Notes: generated from the letters alone by a model not told the origin. Numbered from the stretch's first letter, positions 23,009-58,671 are shown. The stretch is 64,000 nt of DNA from Bacteroidia bacterium (GCA_030431055.1 JAUIJA010000009.1:14665-78664); one strand, 5' to 3'. Numbers and translations: made by a program.

Positions 23009-24196
23009 ATGCCGAAAAGTTTAAAAATATACATCGGAATTTTACTCCTAATTTTAATTGGGATTGTGGTTATTGATGCAAACAGACCAAAACCTATCGA
23101 TTGGCGTCATACATATTCTTTGAACGACAAAATTCCGTTTGGTTTATACGTTTTTGACAATGAGTATGAAGAATTTTTCAAACCGCAAAAAGTAGAGCAA
23201 TTTGGAAAAACACCTTATGAATTTTTCGACTCAAAATTTAATTATAACGATACAACATATAGTAAAGGAACCTTTCTTTATATTGATAATGAATTTAATT
23301 TAGATGAAGAATCAGTTGAAGAGTTATTGTATTTCGCTAGTCATGGAAATGATATCTTTTTAAGCGCAACGAGTTTTCCTAATAAATTAAAAGATTCTTT
23401 AAATTTTAAACTCGAATTTGACAATAATTACAACGATTCTATTGAAATGTCAACTACAAAAACAAAAGTTAAATCGGATAGTTATTTCAATAAAGGAATT
23501 AACAATCGCTATTTTACAGAACTCGATTCTTCAGCTATTGTTTTAGGTCAGCAAAAAAGAAGTTCGGGTAAATTGCAAACCAACTTTATAAAAATTCCTT
23601 ATGGAAACGGAAACTTCTTCTTACACACGCAACCTATTGCGTTTACCAATTATTATTTATTAAAAGACAATTATTCATATACAGAAGACATTCTAAGTTA
23701 TTTACCAAAAACAAATAACATCTACTGGAAAGTCCGCAAGTTTGAAAGCAATAATCTTAACCAATCTCCATTAGGATTTGTTTTTAGTCAGCCAGCTTTA
23801 AAATGGGCTTGGTTATTTGCTATCTACGGAATGATTGTTTTTATGTTTTTTAATGCAAAAAGACGTCAGCGCGTTATTCCTATTATCAATCCGTTGCGAA
23901 ATACAACCGTAGATTTCACTAAAACTATTGGAAATTTATACTATCAAGAAAAAGATTACATGAACATAATCGATAAAAAGATTATCTTTTTCCTAGAAAA
24001 AATTAGAAACGATTATTATTTAGATACTTTTAATTTAGACGATACATTTATCAACCGATTGCATCAAAAATCTGGTAAATCTAAAGATGAAGTTAATAAA
24101 TTAATACAACTTATAAACACATTGCGAAACAAATCAGTAGCAACTGAAAATGATGTTATTACATTAAACGAACAGATAGAAAAATTTTATTCATAA
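23009..24196 (+). CDS. DUF4350-like protein
   Basis: N-terminal TM, DKIPFG, AFTNYYLL, C-terminal TM then KRRQRVIP and FTKTIGNLYY. Confidence 0.75.
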   Translation: MPKSLKIYIGILLLILIGIVVIDANRPKPIDWRHTYSLNDKIPFGLYVFDNEYEEFFKPQKVEQFGKTPYEFFDSKFNYNDTTYSKGTFLYIDNEFNLDEESVEELLYFASHGNDIFLSATSFPNKLKDSLNFKLEFDNNYNDSIEMSTTKTKVKSDSYFNKGINNRYFTELDSSAIVLGQQKRSSGKLQTNFIKIPYGNGNFFLHTQPIAFTNYYLLKDNYSYTEDILSYLPKTNNIYWKVRKFESNNLNQSPLGFVFSQPALKWAWLFAIYGMIVFMFFNAKRRQRVIPIINPLRNTTVDFTKTIGNLYYQEKDYMNIIDKKIIFFLEKIRNDYYLDTFNLDDTFINRLHQKSGKSKDEVNKLIQLINTLRNKSVATENDVITLNEQIEKFYS

Positions 24197-25221
24197 TGGA
24201 AAATACATTTGAACAAAACGAGCAAAATGCTGAAAATACACAGAATGAAAATGTAAATTTTCAATCGCGTATCGATTTACAACCTTTACAAGAAAGTATT
24301 GACCAAGTAAAATCGGAAATTGCCCAAGTAATTGTTGGACAAAACAAAATGATCGACCAACTTTTAGTTGCCGTTTTAGCAAATGGTCACGTTTTACTAG
24401 AAGGTGTTCCTGGCGTTGCGAAAACTATAACAGCAAAACTTTTAGCTAAAACCTTGAGTTTAGATTTTAGCCGAATTCAATTCACACCCGATTTAATGCC
24501 GTCAGATATAATTGGAACTTCAGTTTTCGATTTATCTCAATCGAAATTCGAATTCAAAAAAGGACCAATTTTCTCAAACTTCATTTTAATTGATGAGATT
24601 AACCGTGCTCCAGCAAAAACACAAGCAGCTTTGTTTGAAGTTATGGAAGAACGTCAAATTACTGCTGATGGTCATACATACAAATTAGACCAACCTTTCC
24701 TAGTTATTGCTACGCAAAACCCTATTGAACAAGAAGGAACATATCGTTTACCAGAAGCACAATTAGACCGATTTTTATTCAAAATAAACATCGATTATCC
24801 TAATCTTCAAGAAGAAATCGCAATTATCAATAAAGAAAACGAATTAAAGAGCAAAAACAAGTTAGAAGATATTGCTACGATAATTTCAAACAGTAATATT
24901 TTAGGTTTTCAAAGCTTAATTAAAGAAGTTTTAGTCGAACCTCATTTAATGGAATACATTGCAAAAATTGTTTTAAACACTCGTGAAAATGCCTTTTTAT
25001 ACTTAGGAGCTTCACCACGCGCATCTATTGCAATTTTAAATGCAGCAAAAGGTTTTGCAGCGCTAAACGGACGTGATTTTGTAACTCCAGATGATATTAA
25101 AGAAGCGGCAATTCCTGTTTTACAACATCGTGTTGTGGTTACTCCAGAACGTGAAATGGAAGGAATTAGCAGTACTGAAATTATCAAACAAATCATCGAT
25201 ATGGTTGAAATTCCTAGATAA
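24196..25221 (+). CDS. moxR: MoxR family AAA+ ATPase
   Basis: HVLLEGVPGVAKT, RIQFTPDLMPSD, DEINRAPAKTQAAL, LPEAQLDRF. Confidence 0.95.
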   Translation: MENTFEQNEQNAENTQNENVNFQSRIDLQPLQESIDQVKSEIAQVIVGQNKMIDQLLVAVLANGHVLLEGVPGVAKTITAKLLAKTLSLDFSRIQFTPDLMPSDIIGTSVFDLSQSKFEFKKGPIFSNFILIDEINRAPAKTQAALFEVMEERQITADGHTYKLDQPFLVIATQNPIEQEGTYRLPEAQLDRFLFKINIDYPNLQEEIAIINKENELKSKNKLEDIATIISNSNILGFQSLIKEVLVEPHLMEYIAKIVLNTRENAFLYLGASPRASIAILNAAKGFAALNGRDFVTPDDIKEAAIPVLQHRVVVTPEREMEGISSTEIIKQIIDMVEIPR

Positions 25222-25223
25222 TA

Positions 25224-26558
25224 ATGCTGAAGTTTTACAAACAATTATATCTCAATAATTTCTTCTTTTATTGCCTAATGGGAATAATTGCGCTATTTCT
25301 TTTGGCGTTCTTTTTTCCTATGTTTTACAATGCAGCTTGGTATTTGTTCTACATTTTGGTAACCTTTACTATTATTGATGTTTTATTATTGTTTGCTTCA
25401 GGAAAAACTGTAATTGGTAACAGAAACGCTCCTGAAAAACTATCAAATGGAGATGAAAATGAAATTGTTGTTTATCTTCAAAATAAGTACACTTTTCCAA
25501 TTTGGACAAAAGTTATAGACGAAATACCTTTTCAATTTCAAAAACGTGACTTTGAAGTAAAACGAAAAATTTCTGCTCAAGGAAAAGATTCTTTTAAATA
25601 TTTTCTGCGTCCAACAGAACGTGGCGAATATCTTTTTGGAAAATTGAATATTTATGCCGCTTCTCCATTACGTTTGGTTAGTCGCCGATTTATTTATGGA
25701 GAAAACGAAATGGTGCCAACTTATCCTTCTTATATTCAATTACGCAAGTATGATTTAATGGCTTTTTCTAATAATTTGTATCAATACGGATTGAAAAAAA
25801 TTAGAAGAATTGGTCATACAATGGAATTTGAGCAAATTAAAGAATATGTTCAAGGTGATGATATTCGCACGATAAATTGGAAAGCTACTGCAAAGCGAAA
25901 TGAATTGATGGTGAATCAGTTTCAAGATGAGAAATCGCAAAATGTGTATATGGTTATCGATAAAGGTCGTGTAATGAAAATGCCTTTTAGCGGATTAAGT
26001 TTACTCGATTATGCGATAAATGCGACTTTGGTTTTGTCAAATGTTATTCTGAAAAAAGGCGACAAAGCCGGAATGTTTACGTTTTCTAAAAAGGTTGAAA
26101 ATAGAATTGTTGCCGAAAAGCGTTTAAGCCAAATGCAACAAATCATGGAAAACTTATACAACATTAAAACCGATTATTTTGAAAGTGATTTCAGCCGATT
26201 ATATGTTGATGTAAAAAAACATATCAATCAGCGAAGTTTGATTTTGTTGTATACTAATTTTGAAACTTTAGATGGTTTACATCGCCAATTACCTTATTTA
26301 AAAGGAATTGCAAAAAATCATTTACTTGTTGTGGTTTTCTTTAACAATACTGAATTGAACGAATTAATCGATAAAAAAGCAACGAATATTCAAGAAATTT
26401 ACGACAAAGTTATTGCCGAAAAATTTGCTTTCGAAAAACGCTTAATCGTAAATGAATTAAAGAAATACGGAATCTATTCAGTATTAACACAACCCGAAAA
26501 TCTAACTCTAGATACAATTAATAAATACTTAGAAATTAAAGCTCGAGGAATTTTATAA
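25224..26558 (+). CDS. DUF58 / vWA-like protein
   Basis: EFEQIKEYVQGDDIRTINWKATA, IDKGRVM. Confidence 0.9.
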   Translation: MLKFYKQLYLNNFFFYCLMGIIALFLLAFFFPMFYNAAWYLFYILVTFTIIDVLLLFASGKTVIGNRNAPEKLSNGDENEIVVYLQNKYTFPIWTKVIDEIPFQFQKRDFEVKRKISAQGKDSFKYFLRPTERGEYLFGKLNIYAASPLRLVSRRFIYGENEMVPTYPSYIQLRKYDLMAFSNNLYQYGLKKIRRIGHTMEFEQIKEYVQGDDIRTINWKATAKRNELMVNQFQDEKSQNVYMVIDKGRVMKMPFSGLSLLDYAINATLVLSNVILKKGDKAGMFTFSKKVENRIVAEKRLSQMQQIMENLYNIKTDYFESDFSRLYVDVKKHINQRSLILLYTNFETLDGLHRQLPYLKGIAKNHLLVVVFFNNTELNELIDKKATNIQEIYDKVIAEKFAFEKRLIVNELKKYGIYSVLTQPENLTLDTINKYLEIKARGIL

Positions 26559-26567
26559 TTTTGACAA

Positions 26568-27380
26568 ATGAAAAAAATAGAATCAATTCAAAATCCTTTT
26601 ATAAAATCACTTGTTCAATTACAAGAAAAAGCAAAAGCAAGAAAGCAAACTGGAACTTTTTTAATTGAAGGTCAACGCGAAATTGAATTAGCTTTAAAAG
26701 GTGAATATGAAATTGAATCTATCTTATTTTTACCAGAAATTATTTTAGAAAATCGACTAAATGAAATCACTTCCTCTATATTGACACAACGAGCGGAGTC
26801 GAGATGCGAACTAATAGAAATTTCAAAAGAAGTATATCAAAAATTAGCCTATCGCGATTCAACTGAAGGAATTTTAGCTGTCGCCAAAACAAAATCGCTT
26901 TCACTTCATGATTTAAAACTTTCAAAAAATCCGTTAATTTTAATTGCAGAAAGTTTAGAAAAACCCGGAAACTTAGGAGCAATTTTACGCACAGCTGATG
27001 CAGCTAATATTGATGCTGTCATTATTGCTAATCCGCGAACCGATTTATACAATCCAAATATCGTTCGTTCAAGCGTTGGTTGTTTATTTACACGTCAAAT
27101 TGCCATTGGAACATCAGAAGAAGTTATCGCGTTTTTAAAGCAGAATAACATTAATTTTTATTCGGCTACTTTACAAAACAGTACAGAATATCACACGCAA
27201 GATTACACAAAACCAACAGCGCTCGTTGTTGGAACTGAAGCAACCGGTTTAACTGAAATTTGGAGAAAAGAAAGTACTTCTAATATTATTATTCCTATGC
27301 AAGGCGAAATTGATTCTATGAATGTTTCTGTTGCTGCAGCAATTTTACTTTTTGAAGCAAAAAGACAACGCGGATTTTAA
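26568..27380 (+). CDS. TrmH/SpoU family RNA methyltransferase
   Basis: EKPGNLGAILRTADA, VVGTEATGL, IPMQGEIDSMNVSVAAA. Confidence 0.93.
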   Translation: MKKIESIQNPFIKSLVQLQEKAKARKQTGTFLIEGQREIELALKGEYEIESILFLPEIILENRLNEITSSILTQRAESRCELIEISKEVYQKLAYRDSTEGILAVAKTKSLSLHDLKLSKNPLILIAESLEKPGNLGAILRTADAANIDAVIIANPRTDLYNPNIVRSSVGCLFTRQIAIGTSEEVIAFLKQNNINFYSATLQNSTEYHTQDYTKPTALVVGTEATGLTEIWRKESTSNIIIPMQGEIDSMNVSVAAAILLFEAKRQRGF

Positions 27381-27413
27381 TTTTAATCCCAAATAATTTC
27401 CTTGCACATTTGC

Positions 27414-27421
27414 TAACTTTG
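27414..27421 (+). promoter_or_regulatory. Bacteroidota sigma70 -7 box upstream of rel
   Basis: TAACTTTG matches TAnnTTTG, 30 bp before the ATG. Confidence 0.65.
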
Positions 27422-27450
27422 TTTTAACTTTAAAGTTTATACTTTAGCCT

Positions 27451-29664
27451 ATGCCTGTTATTGATATCGAAGCAGAAAATAAAGCGATTGCAAAAGAATA
27501 CAAAGAGCTTCTTCGTATAAGCTATCAAACACTTTCTAGTGATGATAAAAAATTAATCCGAAAAGCTTTTGACGTAGCTGTTGATGCACACAAAGATCAA
27601 AGACGAAAATCGGGTGAAGCGTATATTTTTCATCCTATTGCTGTTGCTAAAATTGTCGCTTCCGAAATTGGTTTAGGTGCAACTTCTATTGCTGCAGCGT
27701 TAATGCATGATGTTGTTGAAGATACTGATATTTCGGTTGAAGATATTGAAAAAATGTTCAATCCGAAAATTGCTAAAATTGTTGAAGGTTTAACTAAAAT
27801 TGCTAAAGTAAAAACTGAGCAAGATATTTCACTACAAGCGGAAAATTTCCGTAAAATGCTATTGACATTACATGAAGATGTTCGCGTAATCTTAATTAAA
27901 ATTGCTGATAGATTACACAATATGCAAACCATGGAAAGCATGGTTGATTATAAGCAAGCCAAAATTGCATCGGAAACACTTTATATTTATGCACCTTTAG
28001 CACATAGGTTAGGTTTATACAACATCAAAACACAACTAGAAGATTTAGGTTTAAAATATACGGAACCAGATGTTTTTAACGACATTGTTAGTAAAATTAA
28101 AGAAACTAAAGTTGAACAAGATATTTACATCAAATCAATTTCTGATATTTTAAGTAAATCGTTAAATGACGAAAATGTTGAATTTGTTATAAAAGGAAGA
28201 CCAAAATCGATTTATTCTATTCGTAGAAAAATGCGCGTTCAAAATGTAACTTTTGAAGAAGTTTACGATAAGTTTGCACTTCGTATTATTTATAAATCGG
28301 ATAATTTACATGACGAAAAGTTTCTTGCTTGGAAAATTTATTCAGTTGTAACTGATCATTATCGTCCAAGTCCAAGCCGACTTCGTGACTGGATTTCTTC
28401 ACCAAAATCTACTGGTTATGAAGCATTACACATTACCGTAATGGGGCCAAAAGGTCGTTGGGTTGAAATTCAAATTAGAAGTGAACGAATGGACGAAATA
28501 GCCGAAAAAGGTTATGCGGCACATTATAAATATAAAAATGCTGATTCTGAAGAACATGGATTGGAGATTTGGTTAAACCAATTGAAAGAAGCTTTAGAAA
28601 ATCAAACGTCAAATGCTGTTGATTTTGTTGAAGATTTTAAATTAAATCTATACGCTAAAGAAATTTATGTATTTACTCCAAAAGGTGATATTAAATCTTT
28701 ACCAAAAGGCGCTACTGCATTAGATTTCGCTTTCAGCATTCACACTGATATTGGACTACACACAAGAGGAACAAAAGTAAACGGAAAATTAGTTCCGTTA
28801 AATCACACTTTAAATAGTGGCGATCAAGTTGAAGTTATTACTTCGATTAATCAAAAGCCAACATCTCAATGGCTTGAGTTTGTTTCGACATCGCGAGCGC
28901 GAACAAAAATTAAAAATGTTCTAAACGAAAATGCTCGAAGAATTGCCGAAGATGGAAAAGAAATTCTTACTCGCAAACTCCGTCATTTAAAAATTACGCT
29001 AAATGAATCGGTTGTAAATGAGCTGGTTAGTTACTTCAAACTTCAAACTAGTCAAGATTTATTTTACCGTTTCGGAATTGGCGCTATCGAAAATCAACAA
29101 TTAAAAGATTTTGTAGCTCAAAAAAGTAATTCGTTTGTTAATTTCTTTAAGAAAACAATCAAAAGAACTCCAAGTCAGCCAGAAAATTTTGTAAAAAAAG
29201 ATGTAAATCAAAAATATGATTTATTAGTCTTTGGTAAAAATCAGGAAAAACTTGATTATAAATTAGCTAGTTGTTGTAACCCAATTCCAGGTGATGATGT
29301 TTTTGGTTTTCTAACCATTAATGAAGGAATAAAAGTCCACCGAAAAGATTGTCCGAATGCTATTAGCATGCAATCAAACTATGCTTATCGAATAATGCAA
29401 GCACAATGGATTGATTCTAGCAAGGAAGAGTTTAAAGTTGGACTAGAAATTACGGGATTAGACAGCTTCGGACTAGCAAACGAACTTACAAAGGTTATTT
29501 CAAACCAAATGCACGTAAATATACAAAGTTTGTCGCTAAACGGAGATGCTGGAGTATTCACTGGAAATATAACTGTTATCGTTCAAAACAACAGTGTTTT
29601 AAAGAAATTAATAGATAGTATTAAAAAAGTTGATGGAGTAGACAAAATTAAGCGTATTAATTAA
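27451..29664 (+). CDS. rel: Bifunctional (p)ppGpp synthetase/hydrolase
   Basis: RRKSGEAYIFHP, MHDVVEDT, RPKSIYS, EIQIRS, TGS and ACT domains. Confidence 0.95.
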   Translation: MPVIDIEAENKAIAKEYKELLRISYQTLSSDDKKLIRKAFDVAVDAHKDQRRKSGEAYIFHPIAVAKIVASEIGLGATSIAAALMHDVVEDTDISVEDIEKMFNPKIAKIVEGLTKIAKVKTEQDISLQAENFRKMLLTLHEDVRVILIKIADRLHNMQTMESMVDYKQAKIASETLYIYAPLAHRLGLYNIKTQLEDLGLKYTEPDVFNDIVSKIKETKVEQDIYIKSISDILSKSLNDENVEFVIKGRPKSIYSIRRKMRVQNVTFEEVYDKFALRIIYKSDNLHDEKFLAWKIYSVVTDHYRPSPSRLRDWISSPKSTGYEALHITVMGPKGRWVEIQIRSERMDEIAEKGYAAHYKYKNADSEEHGLEIWLNQLKEALENQTSNAVDFVEDFKLNLYAKEIYVFTPKGDIKSLPKGATALDFAFSIHTDIGLHTRGTKVNGKLVPLNHTLNSGDQVEVITSINQKPTSQWLEFVSTSRARTKIKNVLNENARRIAEDGKEILTRKLRHLKITLNESVVNELVSYFKLQTSQDLFYRFGIGAIENQQLKDFVAQKSNSFVNFFKKTIKRTPSQPENFVKKDVNQKYDLLVFGKNQEKLDYKLASCCNPIPGDDVFGFLTINEGIKVHRKDCPNAISMQSNYAYRIMQAQWIDSSKEEFKVGLEITGLDSFGLANELTKVISNQMHVNIQSLSLNGDAGVFTGNITVIVQNNSVLKKLIDSIKKVDGVDKIKRIN

Positions 29665-40854: not shown

Positions 40855-40897
40855 GTTCTCGATACATTCCGATTTCATCGGAACACTCGAACTGACG
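40855..40897. repeat. REP-like half element
   Basis: GTTCTCGATACA-TTCCGATTTCATCGGAA-CACTCGAACTGACG. Confidence 0.9.
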
Positions 40898-40976
40898 ACT
40901 TCGACTGAAAACAGATTACTAAAGTCGCTTCGCTTCTTCCCTTTTAGAATTTGAAAATCAAAGATTTTCGAATTAC

Positions 40977-41791: not shown

Positions 41792-41856
41792 AGACACTTC
41801 GCTTCTCGATACATCCGATTTTATCGGAACACTCGAAGTGACGGCTCAGTGTGATA
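41792..41856. repeat. Nested REP-like elements
   Basis: AGACACTTCG[CTTCTCGATACA...CACTCGAAGTGACG]GCTCAGTGTGATA. Confidence 0.85.
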
Positions 41857-41871
41857 ATTAGTTATAAAAAT

Positions 41872-53312: not shown

Positions 53313-54536
53313 TTACTTAATCTCCTCGAAATTTTTTTGAGAAAGCGCAATTACCTTTGGTAAATTTTCTTTTGTATTAATTGAAAACTCAGATAAGTTA
53401 TTTATAAATCTTTCTAATGTTAGGTAAAAATCTTCCATTTTAGTATAACTAATCAAACTATTTTCAGCAGAAACTCCAAATAATTTCTGTAACCCAGAAA
53501 ACTTTCCTTCGTATGAAATACCAAACATTGGTTTTGCTAATGAATATCCTGAAATACCAAAGTGCATTCTCCCTGTAATTGTAAAGTCTACTAACTCAAG
53601 ATACGATTTCAATACAACTCCATTAGTGATATTATCTTTAAAATAAATGTCTAAATTTTTCTCCTTTAACTTCAAGTAAATTTTCTCAGCCAAATCACGA
53701 TCGTTCATTTTACCTCTTATATCGTGGTATAAGAAAACAAAAACAACATTTTTTTTATTTTGAATTTCTTCTAAAGTAGTTGTAAATTGATTTACATATT
53801 CTTCAATACCTACTTTGTGTGCTTGTATAGAATTTGGACAAATTGCAGCAATTATTTTTGATTCTGCTTTTTTAACAGAAACCCAACTTAAAAAATCTTC
53901 ATCAGAATTTTTATTATACGGGCATAAAAATGCTAAATCTGAAACTTGCTGAATATTTTCTATTGGTAAAAAGGTTTTGGCAACCTCAAAAGAATCTGGT
54001 TCACGAAGTTTAAAATGTGTATTCGGGATTAATTCTAGAAAATCTTTTTCCAATTCAGAGTTTATTATTCCTTTATTTAAACTAAACCCTAAAATACCAG
54101 TAGGAATATCATATTTATTTGCAAATTTTAAAACTCTACACTTAAAGGAAGGAAAAGAAATTCCGTATGAAGGTGTCATATTATCAGCCCCTAAAATATA
54201 AACTCCTCCTTTAAGTTTATGAAACTTAGGTGCGTATTTATACTTTAAATATGAAACATTATGCATAGTTCCGAACAAATCAACGCGTTCTAAAAATTTA
54301 CTTTCATAAATTGTAATTTTCTTATTTTCATCAAATTGATTAATAAATGTAACTGTCATTAATTCATCACCAAAAGAACCATCAAGATGAGTCGGCGGTA
54401 TTAAAAGTATTCCATCTTCTTCTTTCTCAAAAAAACTTAAAATTTGATTAAAGACATGATGAATATTCCACCTTAATTTTAAAAAAAAATAATGCTTTTT
54501 TGTTCTAAAACTATCGGTATTTTTGTTTTTTCCCAT
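53313..54536 (-). CDS. Polysaccharide pyruvyl transferase family protein
   Basis: GSFGDE, LREPDS, SDLAF, TGRMH. Confidence 0.75.
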   Translation of the reverse strand: MGKNKNTDSFRTKKHYFFLKLRWNIHHVFNQILSFFEKEEDGILLIPPTHLDGSFGDELMTVTFINQFDENKKITIYESKFLERVDLFGTMHNVSYLKYKYAPKFHKLKGGVYILGADNMTPSYGISFPSFKCRVLKFANKYDIPTGILGFSLNKGIINSELEKDFLELIPNTHFKLREPDSFEVAKTFLPIENIQQVSDLAFLCPYNKNSDEDFLSWVSVKKAESKIIAAICPNSIQAHKVGIEEYVNQFTTTLEEIQNKKNVVFVFLYHDIRGKMNDRDLAEKIYLKLKEKNLDIYFKDNITNGVVLKSYLELVDFTITGRMHFGISGYSLAKPMFGISYEGKFSGLQKLFGVSAENSLISYTKMEDFYLTLERFINNLSEFSINTKENLPKVIALSQKNFEEIK

Positions 54537-54583
54537 TCTTACCTTTTAATAATAAAATTAACTGCACTTTTACTAATTTACAT

Positions 54584-54591
54584 TAACTTTG
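54584..54591 (+). promoter_or_regulatory. -7 box upstream of tsaC
   Basis: TAACTTTG 23 bp before the ATG. Confidence 0.7.
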
Positions 54592-54613
54592 TGCATGGCA
54601 AAAATAACTAAAA

Positions 54614-55174
54614 ATGCATAACGAAATCCAAAAAGCCTTAGAAGTTATTCAAAACGGAGGTATTATCCTTTATCCAACGGACACCGTTTGGGGAATTGGT
54701 TGCGATGCTACAAATGAAGAAGCGGTGAAAAAAATCTATAAGCTAAAACAAAGAGCTGAAAGTAAAAGCATGATTGTTTTAATAAACGGAGATCGTATGT
54801 TATACCAAGTTTTTAATGAATTACCAGAAGTAATTTGGGATATTTGGGATAATACTTCTAAACCAACAACGCTAATTCTAGATAAACCTAAAAATGTTGC
54901 TAAAAACATCATAGCTGAAGATAATACGTTAGGCGTTCGCATGGTGAAAGAACCTTTTTGCTATAAACTTATGGAGCGAATGAAACGACCGCTTGTTTCA
55001 ACTTCCGCTAATATTTCTGGTGAGCCAACACCAAAATCTTTTAAAGAAATTTCTCCCGAAATTATAAAAGGTGTGGACTATGTTGTAAATTTGCAGCACG
55101 ATAAAATTGGCAACAAACCTTCGACGATTATTAAGTTATCACTTGATAGTCAGGTTAAGGTTATTAGAAAGTAA
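54614..55174 (+). CDS. tsaC: L-threonylcarbamoyladenylate synthase (Sua5/TsaC)
   Basis: YPTDTVWGIG, KLKQR, LVSTSAN. Confidence 0.93.
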   Translation: MHNEIQKALEVIQNGGIILYPTDTVWGIGCDATNEEAVKKIYKLKQRAESKSMIVLINGDRMLYQVFNELPEVIWDIWDNTSKPTTLILDKPKNVAKNIIAEDNTLGVRMVKEPFCYKLMERMKRPLVSTSANISGEPTPKSFKEISPEIIKGVDYVVNLQHDKIGNKPSTIIKLSLDSQVKVIRK

Positions 55175-55181
55175 AAGTTCG

Positions 55182-55251
55182 TTTGTCATTCTGAATGAAG
55201 TGAAGAATCTCATAATTTATGTGACTTCTCGACTTCGCTCGAAGTGACAAA
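55182..55251. repeat. REP doublet with TTTGTCA...TGACAAA ends
   Basis: TGTCATTCTGAATGAAGTGAAGAATCT plus TTCTCGACTTCGCTCGAAGTGACA. Confidence 0.85.
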
Positions 55252-55265
55252 AAGAATTACAAAAT

Positions 55266-56684
55266 ATGAATTACAAAGAACATTTAGATACTCCTATATT
55301 TAAAATAATTGCTCAAGCTGCTAGCGAACTCAAATTAGAGTCTTATGTTATTGGCGGATTTGTGCGCGATATTTTACTTAAAAGAAATCACAAAAAAGAT
55401 ATTGATATTGTAGCTGTTGGTAGCGGAATAGAATTAGCCTTAAAAGTTGCCGACTTAATTCCCAACAAACCAAAAGTTCAAGTTTTTAAAAACTACGGAA
55501 CTGCGATGCTTCGCTATCAAGATATTGATGTAGAATTTGTAGGAGCTCGTAAAGAAAGTTATAATTTCGATAGTCGAAATCCTGTTGTTGAAAACGGAAC
55601 GCTAAAAGACGACCAAGAACGTCGCGATTTTACTATAAACGCATTAGCTTTTTCACTTAACGAAAATAATTTTGGTGATTTAGTTGATCCTTTTAATGGA
55701 GTTACAGATTTAGAAAACAAAATTATTCGTACCCCTTTAAATCCAGATATTACTTATTCTGATGATCCGTTACGAATGATGCGTGCTATCCGTTTTGCTA
55801 CGCAGTTAAATTTTGAAATCGAAACTGAATCTTTAGAAGCTATTTCAAGAAATGCCGAACGCATTAAAATTATTTCTAGCGAACGAATTGTTGATGAATT
55901 AAATAAAATTTTAGCCACGCCAAAACCCTCAATCGGATTTTTATTGTTACACAAAACTGGTTTATTACACTTGATTCTACCTGAATTAACCGCATTAAAC
56001 AATGTTGAAGAAGTTGAAGGTCATACGCACAAAAACAACTTTTACCATACACTAGAAGTAGTTGATAATATTTGTCCGAATACAGATGATTTATGGTTAC
56101 GTTGGTCGGCGTTATTACATGATATTGGTAAAGCGCCAACGAAGAAGTTTCATAAAAAACAAGGTTGGACATTTCACGGACATGAGTTTTTAGGCGGAAA
56201 AATGGTTAAAAAACTATTTCAGCGTTTACACATGCCATTAAATCATAAAATGAAATTTGTGCAAAAAATGGTCATGATGAGTTCGCGACCAATAGTTTTA
56301 GCACAAGAAGAAGTTACCGATTCAGCTGTTCGTCGCTTGGTTTTTGATGCTGGAGATGATGTTGAAAACTTAATGATACTTTGCGAAGCAGATATTACCA
56401 CAAAAAACCCGAAAAAATTTAAACGCTATCACAATAACTTCAAGATTGTTCGTGAGAAAATTGTAGAAGTGGAAGAAAAAGATAGAGTTCGTAATTTCCA
56501 ACCGCCAATTGATGGTGAAGAAATTATGCAGTTGTTCAATTTGAAACCAGGACGAGAAATTGGTATTTTAAAAGAAGCGGTTAAAGAAGCTATTTTAGAA
56601 GGTGAAATTCCAAATGAATATGATGCTGCTTTTCAATTTGTTCTAGCTAGAGCTGAGAAAATGGGACTGAAGTCAATTCGTTGA
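55266..56684 (+). CDS. cca: CCA tRNA nucleotidyltransferase with HD domain
   Basis: GGFVRD, DIDI, RRDFTINAL, DDPLRMMRA, LLHDIGK. Confidence 0.9.
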   Translation: MNYKEHLDTPIFKIIAQAASELKLESYVIGGFVRDILLKRNHKKDIDIVAVGSGIELALKVADLIPNKPKVQVFKNYGTAMLRYQDIDVEFVGARKESYNFDSRNPVVENGTLKDDQERRDFTINALAFSLNENNFGDLVDPFNGVTDLENKIIRTPLNPDITYSDDPLRMMRAIRFATQLNFEIETESLEAISRNAERIKIISSERIVDELNKILATPKPSIGFLLLHKTGLLHLILPELTALNNVEEVEGHTHKNNFYHTLEVVDNICPNTDDLWLRWSALLHDIGKAPTKKFHKKQGWTFHGHEFLGGKMVKKLFQRLHMPLNHKMKFVQKMVMMSSRPIVLAQEEVTDSAVRRLVFDAGDDVENLMILCEADITTKNPKKFKRYHNNFKIVREKIVEVEEKDRVRNFQPPIDGEEIMQLFNLKPGREIGILKEAVKEAILEGEIPNEYDAAFQFVLARAEKMGLKSIR

Positions 56685-58554: not shown

Positions 58555-58650
58555 CGTCACTTCGAGTAGATTTTGAAAAAATCGTATCGAGAAGTTAAAA
58601 TCCCGAGTTCTCGATACATTCCGATTAAAATAGGAACACTCGAACTGACA
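58555..58650. repeat. REP-like composite palindrome
   Basis: CGTCACTTCGAGT...GTATCGAGAA / TTCTCGATAC...ACTCGAACTGACA. Confidence 0.9.
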
Positions 58651-58671
58651 GTTTCAAATTCGCAAATCTGC

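Follow-up and report, generated by a model that had tools for sequence, protein, structure and literature searches.

The window, by which we mean the whole 64,000-nucleotide stretch of DNA that was analysed, carries at 24196-29664 a conserved neighbourhood of genes for a MoxR-type AAA ATPase, a DUF58 protein, a methyltransferase and a RelA/SpoT homologue, in that order. A RelA/SpoT gene also lies downstream of the methyltransferase in three other loci (L001, L003 and L004). Two features of this region are considered here:

26568..27380, + strand: gene for a SpoU/TrmH-family (SPOUT) rRNA 2'-O-methyltransferase of 270 amino acids, assigned from the open reading frame, Pfam, PDB matches and an AlphaFold (AF2) model
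26781..26807, + strand: in-frame REP unit, TTGACACAACGAGCGGAGTCGAGATGC, assigned from the repeat match, orthologue alignments and sister strains

The methyltransferase comprises an L30e/MRM3-like N-terminal domain (approximately residues 1-108) and a SPOUT catalytic domain (approximately residues 120-268). Pfam placed the MRM3-like substrate-binding domain (PF22435) at residues 9-104 with a value of 1.5e-21, and SpoU_methylase (PF00588) at residues 123-262 with a value of 2e-35 and over its full length. The nearest solved structures by sequence were Thermus RrmA (1IPA, E 1e-51) and then RlmR 9H1K and 4X3L. RlmR is the 23S Um2552 methyltransferase, and its complex with RNA has been described (PMC12123411). 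Identity to RlmR was 37-38%, with RrmA scoring better by sequence, and the AF2 model (pLDDT 79.6) matched RlmR in Foldseek with a TM of 0.79-0.82. One orthologue carries the source name U2479 methyltransferase. Both the domains and the fold are those of the SPOUT methyltransferases with an L30e-like N-terminus (the RrmA, RlmR, RlmB and AviRb group), and the host protein is predicted to be an RrmA/RlmR-like rRNA 2'-O-methyltransferase, not the tRNA-Gm18 enzyme TrmH proper. The preliminary description of this DNA, which had spoken of a TrmH methyltransferase with an intact frame, was thus correct at the level of the SpoU/TrmH family but not for the individual enzyme, to which RrmA and RlmR are closest; the intactness of the gene is borne out by the open 270-residue frame and the full-length SpoU_methylase match.

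Within this open reading frame, TGACACAACGAGCGGAGTCGAGATG (26782-26806, + strand) is read in frame as LTQRAESRC. Segment 26781-26807 has a G+C content of 56%, whereas the gene as a whole has 32% and the window 30%. Its core, CGAGCGRAGTCGAGA, occurs in the window only at 26790-26804 (+) and 55227-55241 (-), with an expectation of 0 from 100 shuffles. Compared with the consensus TTGTCACTTCGAGCGNAGTCGAGAAGC the insert had 4 mismatches over 26 specified bases, while the best match among 300 first-order random windows had 6. The fit to a commoner subfamily of the repeat, TGTCACATCGAGCGNAGTCGAGATGC (C..G type), was better, with 2 mismatches over 25 specified bases, and this subfamily is closer to the insert than the copy at 55226 in the same window, which by hand count matched at 19 of 24 bases. 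A repeat-like sequence translated in frame within AT-rich surroundings had been proposed at this position, and this holds. So does its assignment to a REP family, given the near match to a subfamily found throughout Bacteroidota and an exact copy in sister strains described below. The suggested likeness to the 55226 element is real, no shuffle having reproduced the shared core, but that copy is a member of a sister subfamily and the insert has closer relatives.

The in-gene copy is a single unit (one arm) and not a doublet. Two of its positions, 26784 and 26789, are T>A relative to the repeat consensus; the change at 26789 breaks a stem pair, and the in-gene copy together with its mRNA surroundings has no significant fold. 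Neither a target-site duplication nor a clean boundary is visible at the insert ends. Four loop residues beside the insert are also unlike those of the nearest orthologues; what happened here may thus have been more than a simple 24-nt insertion, either in size or in complexity. The predicted tryptic peptides of the insert-bearing protein are LNEITSSILTQR and CELIEISK.

All close homologues were from Flavobacterium. The window protein has 270 residues versus 262 in its nearest orthologues (88-91% identical overall), and alignment places the whole of this difference between NEITS and LIEISK. At the codon level the net gain of 8 residues corresponds to L72-R79 (26781-26804, 24 nt, LTQRAESR). Nearly all of the approximately 190 Flavobacterium orthologues examined were 8 residues shorter exactly at this loop. 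The spacing between two fixed anchors could be measured in 112 orthologues and was 40-44 residues in 109 of them and 47 in one, compared with 51 in the window protein and 53 in a homologue designated P0075. Of about 100 distinct Flavobacterium genome loci obtained from two scans, none was longer than 263-264 codons. When the loop was masked, the window protein was 96.6% identical to the insert-free orthologue P0002. Another orthologue, P0083, has a loop longer by 4 residues that bears no likeness to the repeat. The preliminary description had anticipated a gain of about eight residues over orthologues, and the gain is exactly that, all of it within the loop; orthologues without the motif might instead have been of equal length, and they are 8 residues shorter there.

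In the AF2 model residues 61-74 form a helix, 75-80 a loop and 81-85 a strand, which puts the insert at the end of the helix and in the loop. Block 71-80 has a confidence of 62, the second lowest in the model. RlmR has no counterparts of window residues 65-71 and 73-76, indicating that the length of this loop region is not constant in the wider family. The L30-like domain of RlmR touches RNA through residues 18-21 and 78-84, including R83 (PMC12123411). In a HMMER alignment, RlmR residues 78-84 correspond to window residues 91-97, an invariant YRD motif that is intact in the window protein. Alignment and model together place L72-R79 in the L30e-like domain, away from both the SPOUT domain and the YRD RNA-contact motif.

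The 64-kb window holds two canonical copies of the repeat, that is, one besides the gene insert. This second copy is one arm of an intergenic doublet, and three further intergenic elements resemble the family:

55183..55209, + strand: left arm of the intergenic doublet, of a diverged subfamily, TTGTCATTCTGAATGAAGTGAAGAATC, assigned by sequence likeness
55224..55250, - strand: right arm of the doublet, a canonical REP unit, TTGTCACTTCGAGCGAAGTCGAGAAGT, with 1 mismatch to the family consensus
40868-40911, 41814-41857 and 58621-58664: composite reverse-strand-like units (TTCTCGA ... CTCGAA[CG]TGAC), intergenic, assigned from sequence

The doublet starts 9 nt after the stop codon of ORF 54614-55174, and 57 nt separate its left arm from ORF 55266. 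Segment 55180-55255, which contains both arms, folds into one long hairpin (-24.9 kcal/mol, z -3.9), and none of 200 shuffles folded as well. The arms belong to different subfamilies (CATTCTGAATGAAGTGAAGAATC and CACTTCGAGCGAAGTCGAGAAG) and still pair as RNA through G-U pairs. A position 9 nt past a stop codon is where a terminator or an mRNA-stabilising hairpin would be expected; a scan of 54500-55500 for terminator-like structures reported no site inside the doublet. Across the whole window no Rfam match reached the gathering threshold, and the sole hit to the doublet was a meaningless miRNA match (E 0.87). In the three composite elements the loop is exchanged for a second small hairpin, ATTCCGATTTCATCGGAA, and they appear to be a composite variant of the family.

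The repeat is widespread in Bacteroidota. When one genome per species was scanned, the exact pattern CACTTCGAGCGNAGTCGAGAAG was found in at least 119 genome stretches, from Flavobacterium, Kordia, Flagellimonas/Muricauda, Polaribacter, Mesonia, Chryseobacterium and Myroides as well as Chitinophaga, Cytophagia, Sphingobacteriaceae and others. A second exact pattern, TCANATCGAGCGNAGTCGAGAT, was again matched in at least 119 stretches across the phylum, and exact 22-mers of the repeat were common to its different classes. Oriented copies gave the consensus tTGTCACTTCGAGCG-N-AGTCGAGAAG, often with an inverted partner, TCTCGACT-N-CGCTCGA..TGACA, 3-30 nt downstream; unit and partner are predicted to form a REPIN-like hairpin doublet. 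At least about three quarters of the sampled copies lay outside long ORFs. The family therefore shows the short imperfect palindrome, the dispersed and mostly intergenic placement and the inverted doublets of REP and REPIN elements. Exact units were also present on contigs labelled Christensenella, Sphingomonas, Sphingopyxis, Hyphomicrobiales, Latescibacterota and Cloacimonadota (L133, L145, L150, L154, L334, L343 and L344), which could be due to binning contamination, a wider distribution or horizontal transfer.

In the 136 copies of the second scan, the base after TCA could form a Watson-Crick pair with the base after GAGAT in 127 cases, as C..G in 84, A..T in 24, T..A in 14 and G..C in 5. 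The CTTC..GAAG and CATC..GATG subfamilies supply a second compensatory pair. This compensatory covariation indicates that each unit is a stem-loop under structural constraint. In our reading of the sequences, the stem of the unit would have about 6 bp, interrupted by a 2-nt bulge, and GCGNAG would be its loop. As judged from the consensus, five of its six reading frames have no stop codon. The unit, TTGTCA[N]WTCGAGCGNAGTCGAGAW[N], ends in neither a GTAG nor a CGTC tag, and GTAG occurs only inside the loop when N is T. A crude motif for RAYT-like proteins (HUH ... Y..NP) had no match in the fetched loci, and no transposase lay within the arrays of repeat units in two of them (L031 and L089), where the ORFs encode unrelated membrane or hypothetical proteins.

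The insert was next compared among related strains. The identical insert-bearing gene and protein occur on two more independent metagenome contigs, and the insert is ungapped in related strains from at least four further runs, demonstrating that it is not an assembly artefact. Contigs from three public metagenome runs (X3, X8 and X10) are about 96% identical to the window and ungapped through the insert, and all three have T at both 26784 and 26789. This yields the exact unit TGTCACATCGAGCGGAGTCGAGATGC, a 26-mer with 12 exact occurrences among the 136 sampled copies in other genomes. The inserted peptide is LSHRAESR in these sister strains and LTQRAESR in the window. We conclude that the insert was once a perfect copy and that the window strain has since acquired two substitutions. 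A third haplotype, from run X13, has the window-type insert. Contigs of other species cease to align at 26760-26812 and continue with ordinary short loops. An apparent 7-nt deletion allele in run X8 was discarded, as it is really a contig of a different orthologue (KSSGVE type) that aligned via its own repeat unit.

A metatranscriptome contig of 279 nt, identical to 26568-26846, spans the insert, which suggests that it is transcribed, with DNA carry-over in the library as a possible source. Relative to the X10 haplotype, 17 of the 23 listed base differences were synonymous, and two of the five amino-acid changes fell within the eight inserted codons. This distribution of changes indicates purifying selection on the gene and weaker constraint on the insert.

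Units of the same family were found in the same methyltransferase loop of other Flavobacterium lineages. Flavobacterium sp. LMO8 and F. proteolyticum (L007:10200-10226 and L008:10200-10226; L207 and L208) carry TTGTCAAATCGAGCGAAGTCGAGATT, which is read in a different frame (KSSEVE), adds a net one residue and has A..T as its stem pair, where the window lineage has C..G. Decayed forms (KSSSVE, KSGEVE, KSGEIE and KSNSVE) occur in relatives of these strains (L209, L210, L211 and L215), and L212, which shares 98.7% identity beyond the loop, has a loop of the ordinary type. P0075 (L001:947-1870) carries TTATCATTTCGAGCGCATTCAGAGGAG in the window's frame (LSFRAHSEE), with a gain of 10 residues; its closest relatives, 92% identical outside the loop, are without the element. 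The differences in subfamily, frame and length, combined with the empty sites in the nearest relatives, argue for three separate events and not one old one. Common descent of the window and L207 units had been considered on account of two shared non-consensus bases and was rejected: these bases define a common subfamily and a covarying pair, and the subtypes differ (C..G versus A..T). The methyltransferase loop may be a recurrent target, an observation that was made post hoc for this gene.

Many other proteins contain units in frame. By our own count, about 30 of the 129 exact copies in the first scan were in frame within long ORFs, and 11 of the 136 copies in the second scan passed a stricter in-frame filter. 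Most in-frame readings were VTSS[AG]VEK, others SLRAQSRS or, from the opposite strand, FSTxLEVT or LLDSARSD. Hosts named from their translations include HisA, ArgRS, GluRS, LeuRS, ValRS, MetH, PurL, DNA polymerase I and an E2 acyltransferase linker; Pfam was run on four of these hosts only (two HisA, as His_biosynth, ArgRS and GluRS) and confirmed all four. The loci concerned are L098 (ArgRS), L156 (ValRS), L164 (LeuRS), L193 (MetH), L194/L204 (PurL), L127 (DNA polymerase I) and L189 (the E2 linker). The HisA loop between DLYKKI and KLIASGGIS holds a unit in at least six genomes (L102, L139, L169, L203, L352 and L362), where frames and lengths differ (VTSSGVEK, SLRAQSRS, KSSAVE and HIERSRD), which points to either a recurrent target or a very tolerant loop. 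GluRS carries the unit in four genomes (L159/L171/L298/L395) in a reverse-strand frame as FSTPLEVT or ISTALDLT. The methyltransferase insert is not an isolated case, with units in the same loop of other Flavobacterium lineages and in frame in many housekeeping genes.

Complete inverted doublets are translated in frame at L095, L349 and L383; examples are HFERSREVLSLDSARPD and VTSSAVEMQKVDKDKIALDCARD, the former in a protein with a glycosyltransferase-like motif and the latter in one that exceeds 1100 residues. In these cases both arms are coding, as in some Rickettsia palindromic elements (RPEs).

The repeat identity of the segment, its position in frame, the gain relative to orthologues, its presence in several strains and the RNA-run contig that crosses it are all observed. 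Very probably they arose because a loop that tolerates extra residues recently received one repeat unit, which was kept as harmless and is now decaying. The source would be a unit, that is one arm, of the dispersed REP/REPIN-like hairpin family. In the recent ancestry of this Flavobacterium species, such a unit would have landed in the loop between helix 61-74 and strand 81-85, or alternatively have replaced about one codon of the loop, in a stop-free frame that supplied eight extra residues. The insert would persist because the loop is variable in length and removed from both the YRD motif and the catalytic SPOUT domain. It would now evolve like ordinary, weakly constrained coding sequence, the stem of the free copies having been broken by substitution. 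We infer that the peptide is translated and tolerated, and most likely it is a neutral passenger. By analogy with known systems, a REP-associated tyrosine transposase may have mobilised hairpin DNA, or the unit may have arrived through illegitimate recombination or template switching at a hairpin. Weighing against recent insertion are the presence of only one other canonical copy in the window, the lack of a transposase linked to the family in the fetched loci, the missing target-site duplication and clean boundary, and the deviating loop residues beside the insert.

Alternatively, the insert could have been selected, either as a peptide whose two arginines, in an RNA-binding domain, tune substrate binding, or as an intragenic DNA or RNA site, such as one for protein binding, pausing or recombination. 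This would account for the repeated targeting of one loop of an RNA-binding domain, for the retention of the insert in several strains of different habitats and for the repeated hits at one loop of other proteins, such as HisA with six. We regard it as improbable. Read in different frames, the units yield peptides that are unrelated to each other (LTQRAESR versus KSSEVE), which leaves no room for a common peptide function, and the inserted peptide is evolving more quickly than the remainder of the protein. Free copies conserve the stem, whereas in the window copy it is broken and the region has no significant fold. Together, the unrelated peptides, the fast evolution of the inserted one and the lost stem disfavour an adaptive role. 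In addition, the motif decays inside the KSSEVE clade, and the insert lies away from the positions equivalent to the RNA-contacting residues of RlmR (PMC12123411).

A single ancient insertion in the Flavobacterium ancestor, lost or decayed in most descendants and left in the window lineage, P0075 and the KSSEVE clade, is less probable still and in our view very unlikely. Such an origin would fit the presence of family units in one loop of three lineages and the graded decay in the L207 clade (KSSEVE, KSSSVE, KSGEVE and KSNSVE), and the S-x-E/x-V/T-E found in many orthologue loops could be what is left of a faded unit. However, the three units differ in frame (CGA GCG versus TCG AGC), in net gain (+8, +10 and +1 residues) and in subfamily, down to the covarying pair (the window lineage has C..G and L207 has A..T), and the nearest relatives, at 96.6, 92 and 98.7% identity outside the loop, are without the element. 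Moreover, the perfect 26-mer of the sister strains could not have outlasted a genus-level divergence with saturated synonymous sites.

Chance resemblance of an ordinary indel to the repeat is excluded: no part of the protein varies more than this loop, which differs by a few residues among orthologues and is lengthened in P0083 without any repeat likeness, but no shuffle or random window came near the observed match, the G+C-rich segment stands out from its AT-rich gene, and the exact 26-mer in sister strains already refutes it. An assembly chimera or sequencing artefact, conceivable since assemblers can be misled by repeats, has a negligible probability, being refuted by the identical gene on contigs from two other samples and further opposed by strain-level variation of the insert in at least four more runs and by the preserved reading frame.

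A broader proposal is that a phylum-wide, structurally constrained repeat inserts into genes far more than classical REPs do, repeatedly into the same housekeeping loops, through targeted or structure-guided insertion or patch conversion. We offer this tentatively and lean somewhat against it. The recurrent loops are those of the RrmA/RlmR-like methyltransferase, hit three times in one genus, and of HisA, hit at least six times, with GluRS and PurL also hit repeatedly. If recurrence in the same loop did reflect targeting, it would imply an uncharacterised insertion mechanism; targeting or patch conversion would also mean an ongoing supply of in-frame peptide variation and an undescribed counterpart of RPEs in free-living bacteria.

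The translation of repeats as part of intact housekeeping proteins is known best from Rickettsia, whose genomes are reduced, and from scattered cases in other organisms. RPEs are specific to Rickettsia and approximately 100-150 bp long, or short in the case of RPE-4 and RPE-6, and the same families also occur between genes. Reportedly, it was Ogata and colleagues who, in 2000 and 2002, described them in frame inside functional housekeeping proteins, in work that PMC3733652 cites. Like an RPE, the present element is a dispersed palindromic repeat that adds a peptide at tolerated surface positions of housekeeping proteins, in frame and within intact ORFs. Unlike RPEs, the Bacteroidota unit is 24-27 nt long, usually a single arm, unrelated in sequence and spread over a whole free-living phylum; it belongs to none of the Rickettsia RPE sequence families. 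With a Flavobacterium host and a 27-nt unit that has its own consensus, it is an analogue of RPEs and not a member, and the parallel drawn in the preliminary description is apt in that sense only.

GTAG- and CGTC-tagged REPs have been described inside ORFs for repair proteins, tRNA synthetases and TruB in several phyla, as single units or dimers, and interpreted as neutral inserts in loops and linkers (Di Nocera et al. 2013, PMC3733652). That report lists Bacteroidetes only among the hosts of CGTC repeats, and its passages on intragenic REPs that were drawn on here name no Bacteroidetes species. The Bacteroidota units resemble these REPs, being short stem-loops, single or dimeric, that lie wholly inside ORFs of known proteins, and they differ from them in having no terminal GTAG or CGTC tag.

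REPINs, doublets of REPs that RAYTs mobilise, are well studied (Bertels and Rainey 2011, PMC3116915), and a RAYT subclass centred on Bacteroidetes (TnpAREP subclass 2.6) is reported to have atypical flanking structures (PMC6006769). As in REPINs, an imperfect palindrome of 20-30 nt forms inverted doublets with a long hairpin that are dispersed, mostly intergenic and often just past genes. REPINs are normally lineage-specific and tied to one flanked RAYT gene, whereas the Bacteroidota 22-mers cross classes, the DNA fetched held no RAYT and the in-gene copy is a single arm.

The kind of event is thus already known from Rickettsia RPEs and intragenic REPs, while the repeat family and its host phylum appear undescribed for it. 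A literature search found no description of the repeat's DNA or peptide strings, or of such REPs in Flavobacteriaceae/Bacteroidetes; its coverage was incomplete and an earlier description is possible. The same phenomenon is now seen in free-living Bacteroidota, with exact 22-mers shared across classes. The methyltransferase case is well resolved, with a perfect unit in sister strains, the first steps of decay in the window strain and an empty site in species-level relatives, so that the conversion of mobile non-coding DNA into protein sequence can be dated and followed step by step.

Such units also matter in practice. They cause false local similarity between unrelated proteins, can break metagenome assemblies, and inflate or confuse gene calls with short ORFs such as SLRAQSRS or VTSSAVEK. 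Both of these spurious ORFs occur in a syntenic region of Flavobacterium sp. NRK F7 (L031:2697-4510) and F. profundi (L089:4389-7132), where each genome has an array of eight directly oriented units that, along part of its length, recur about every 45 nt.
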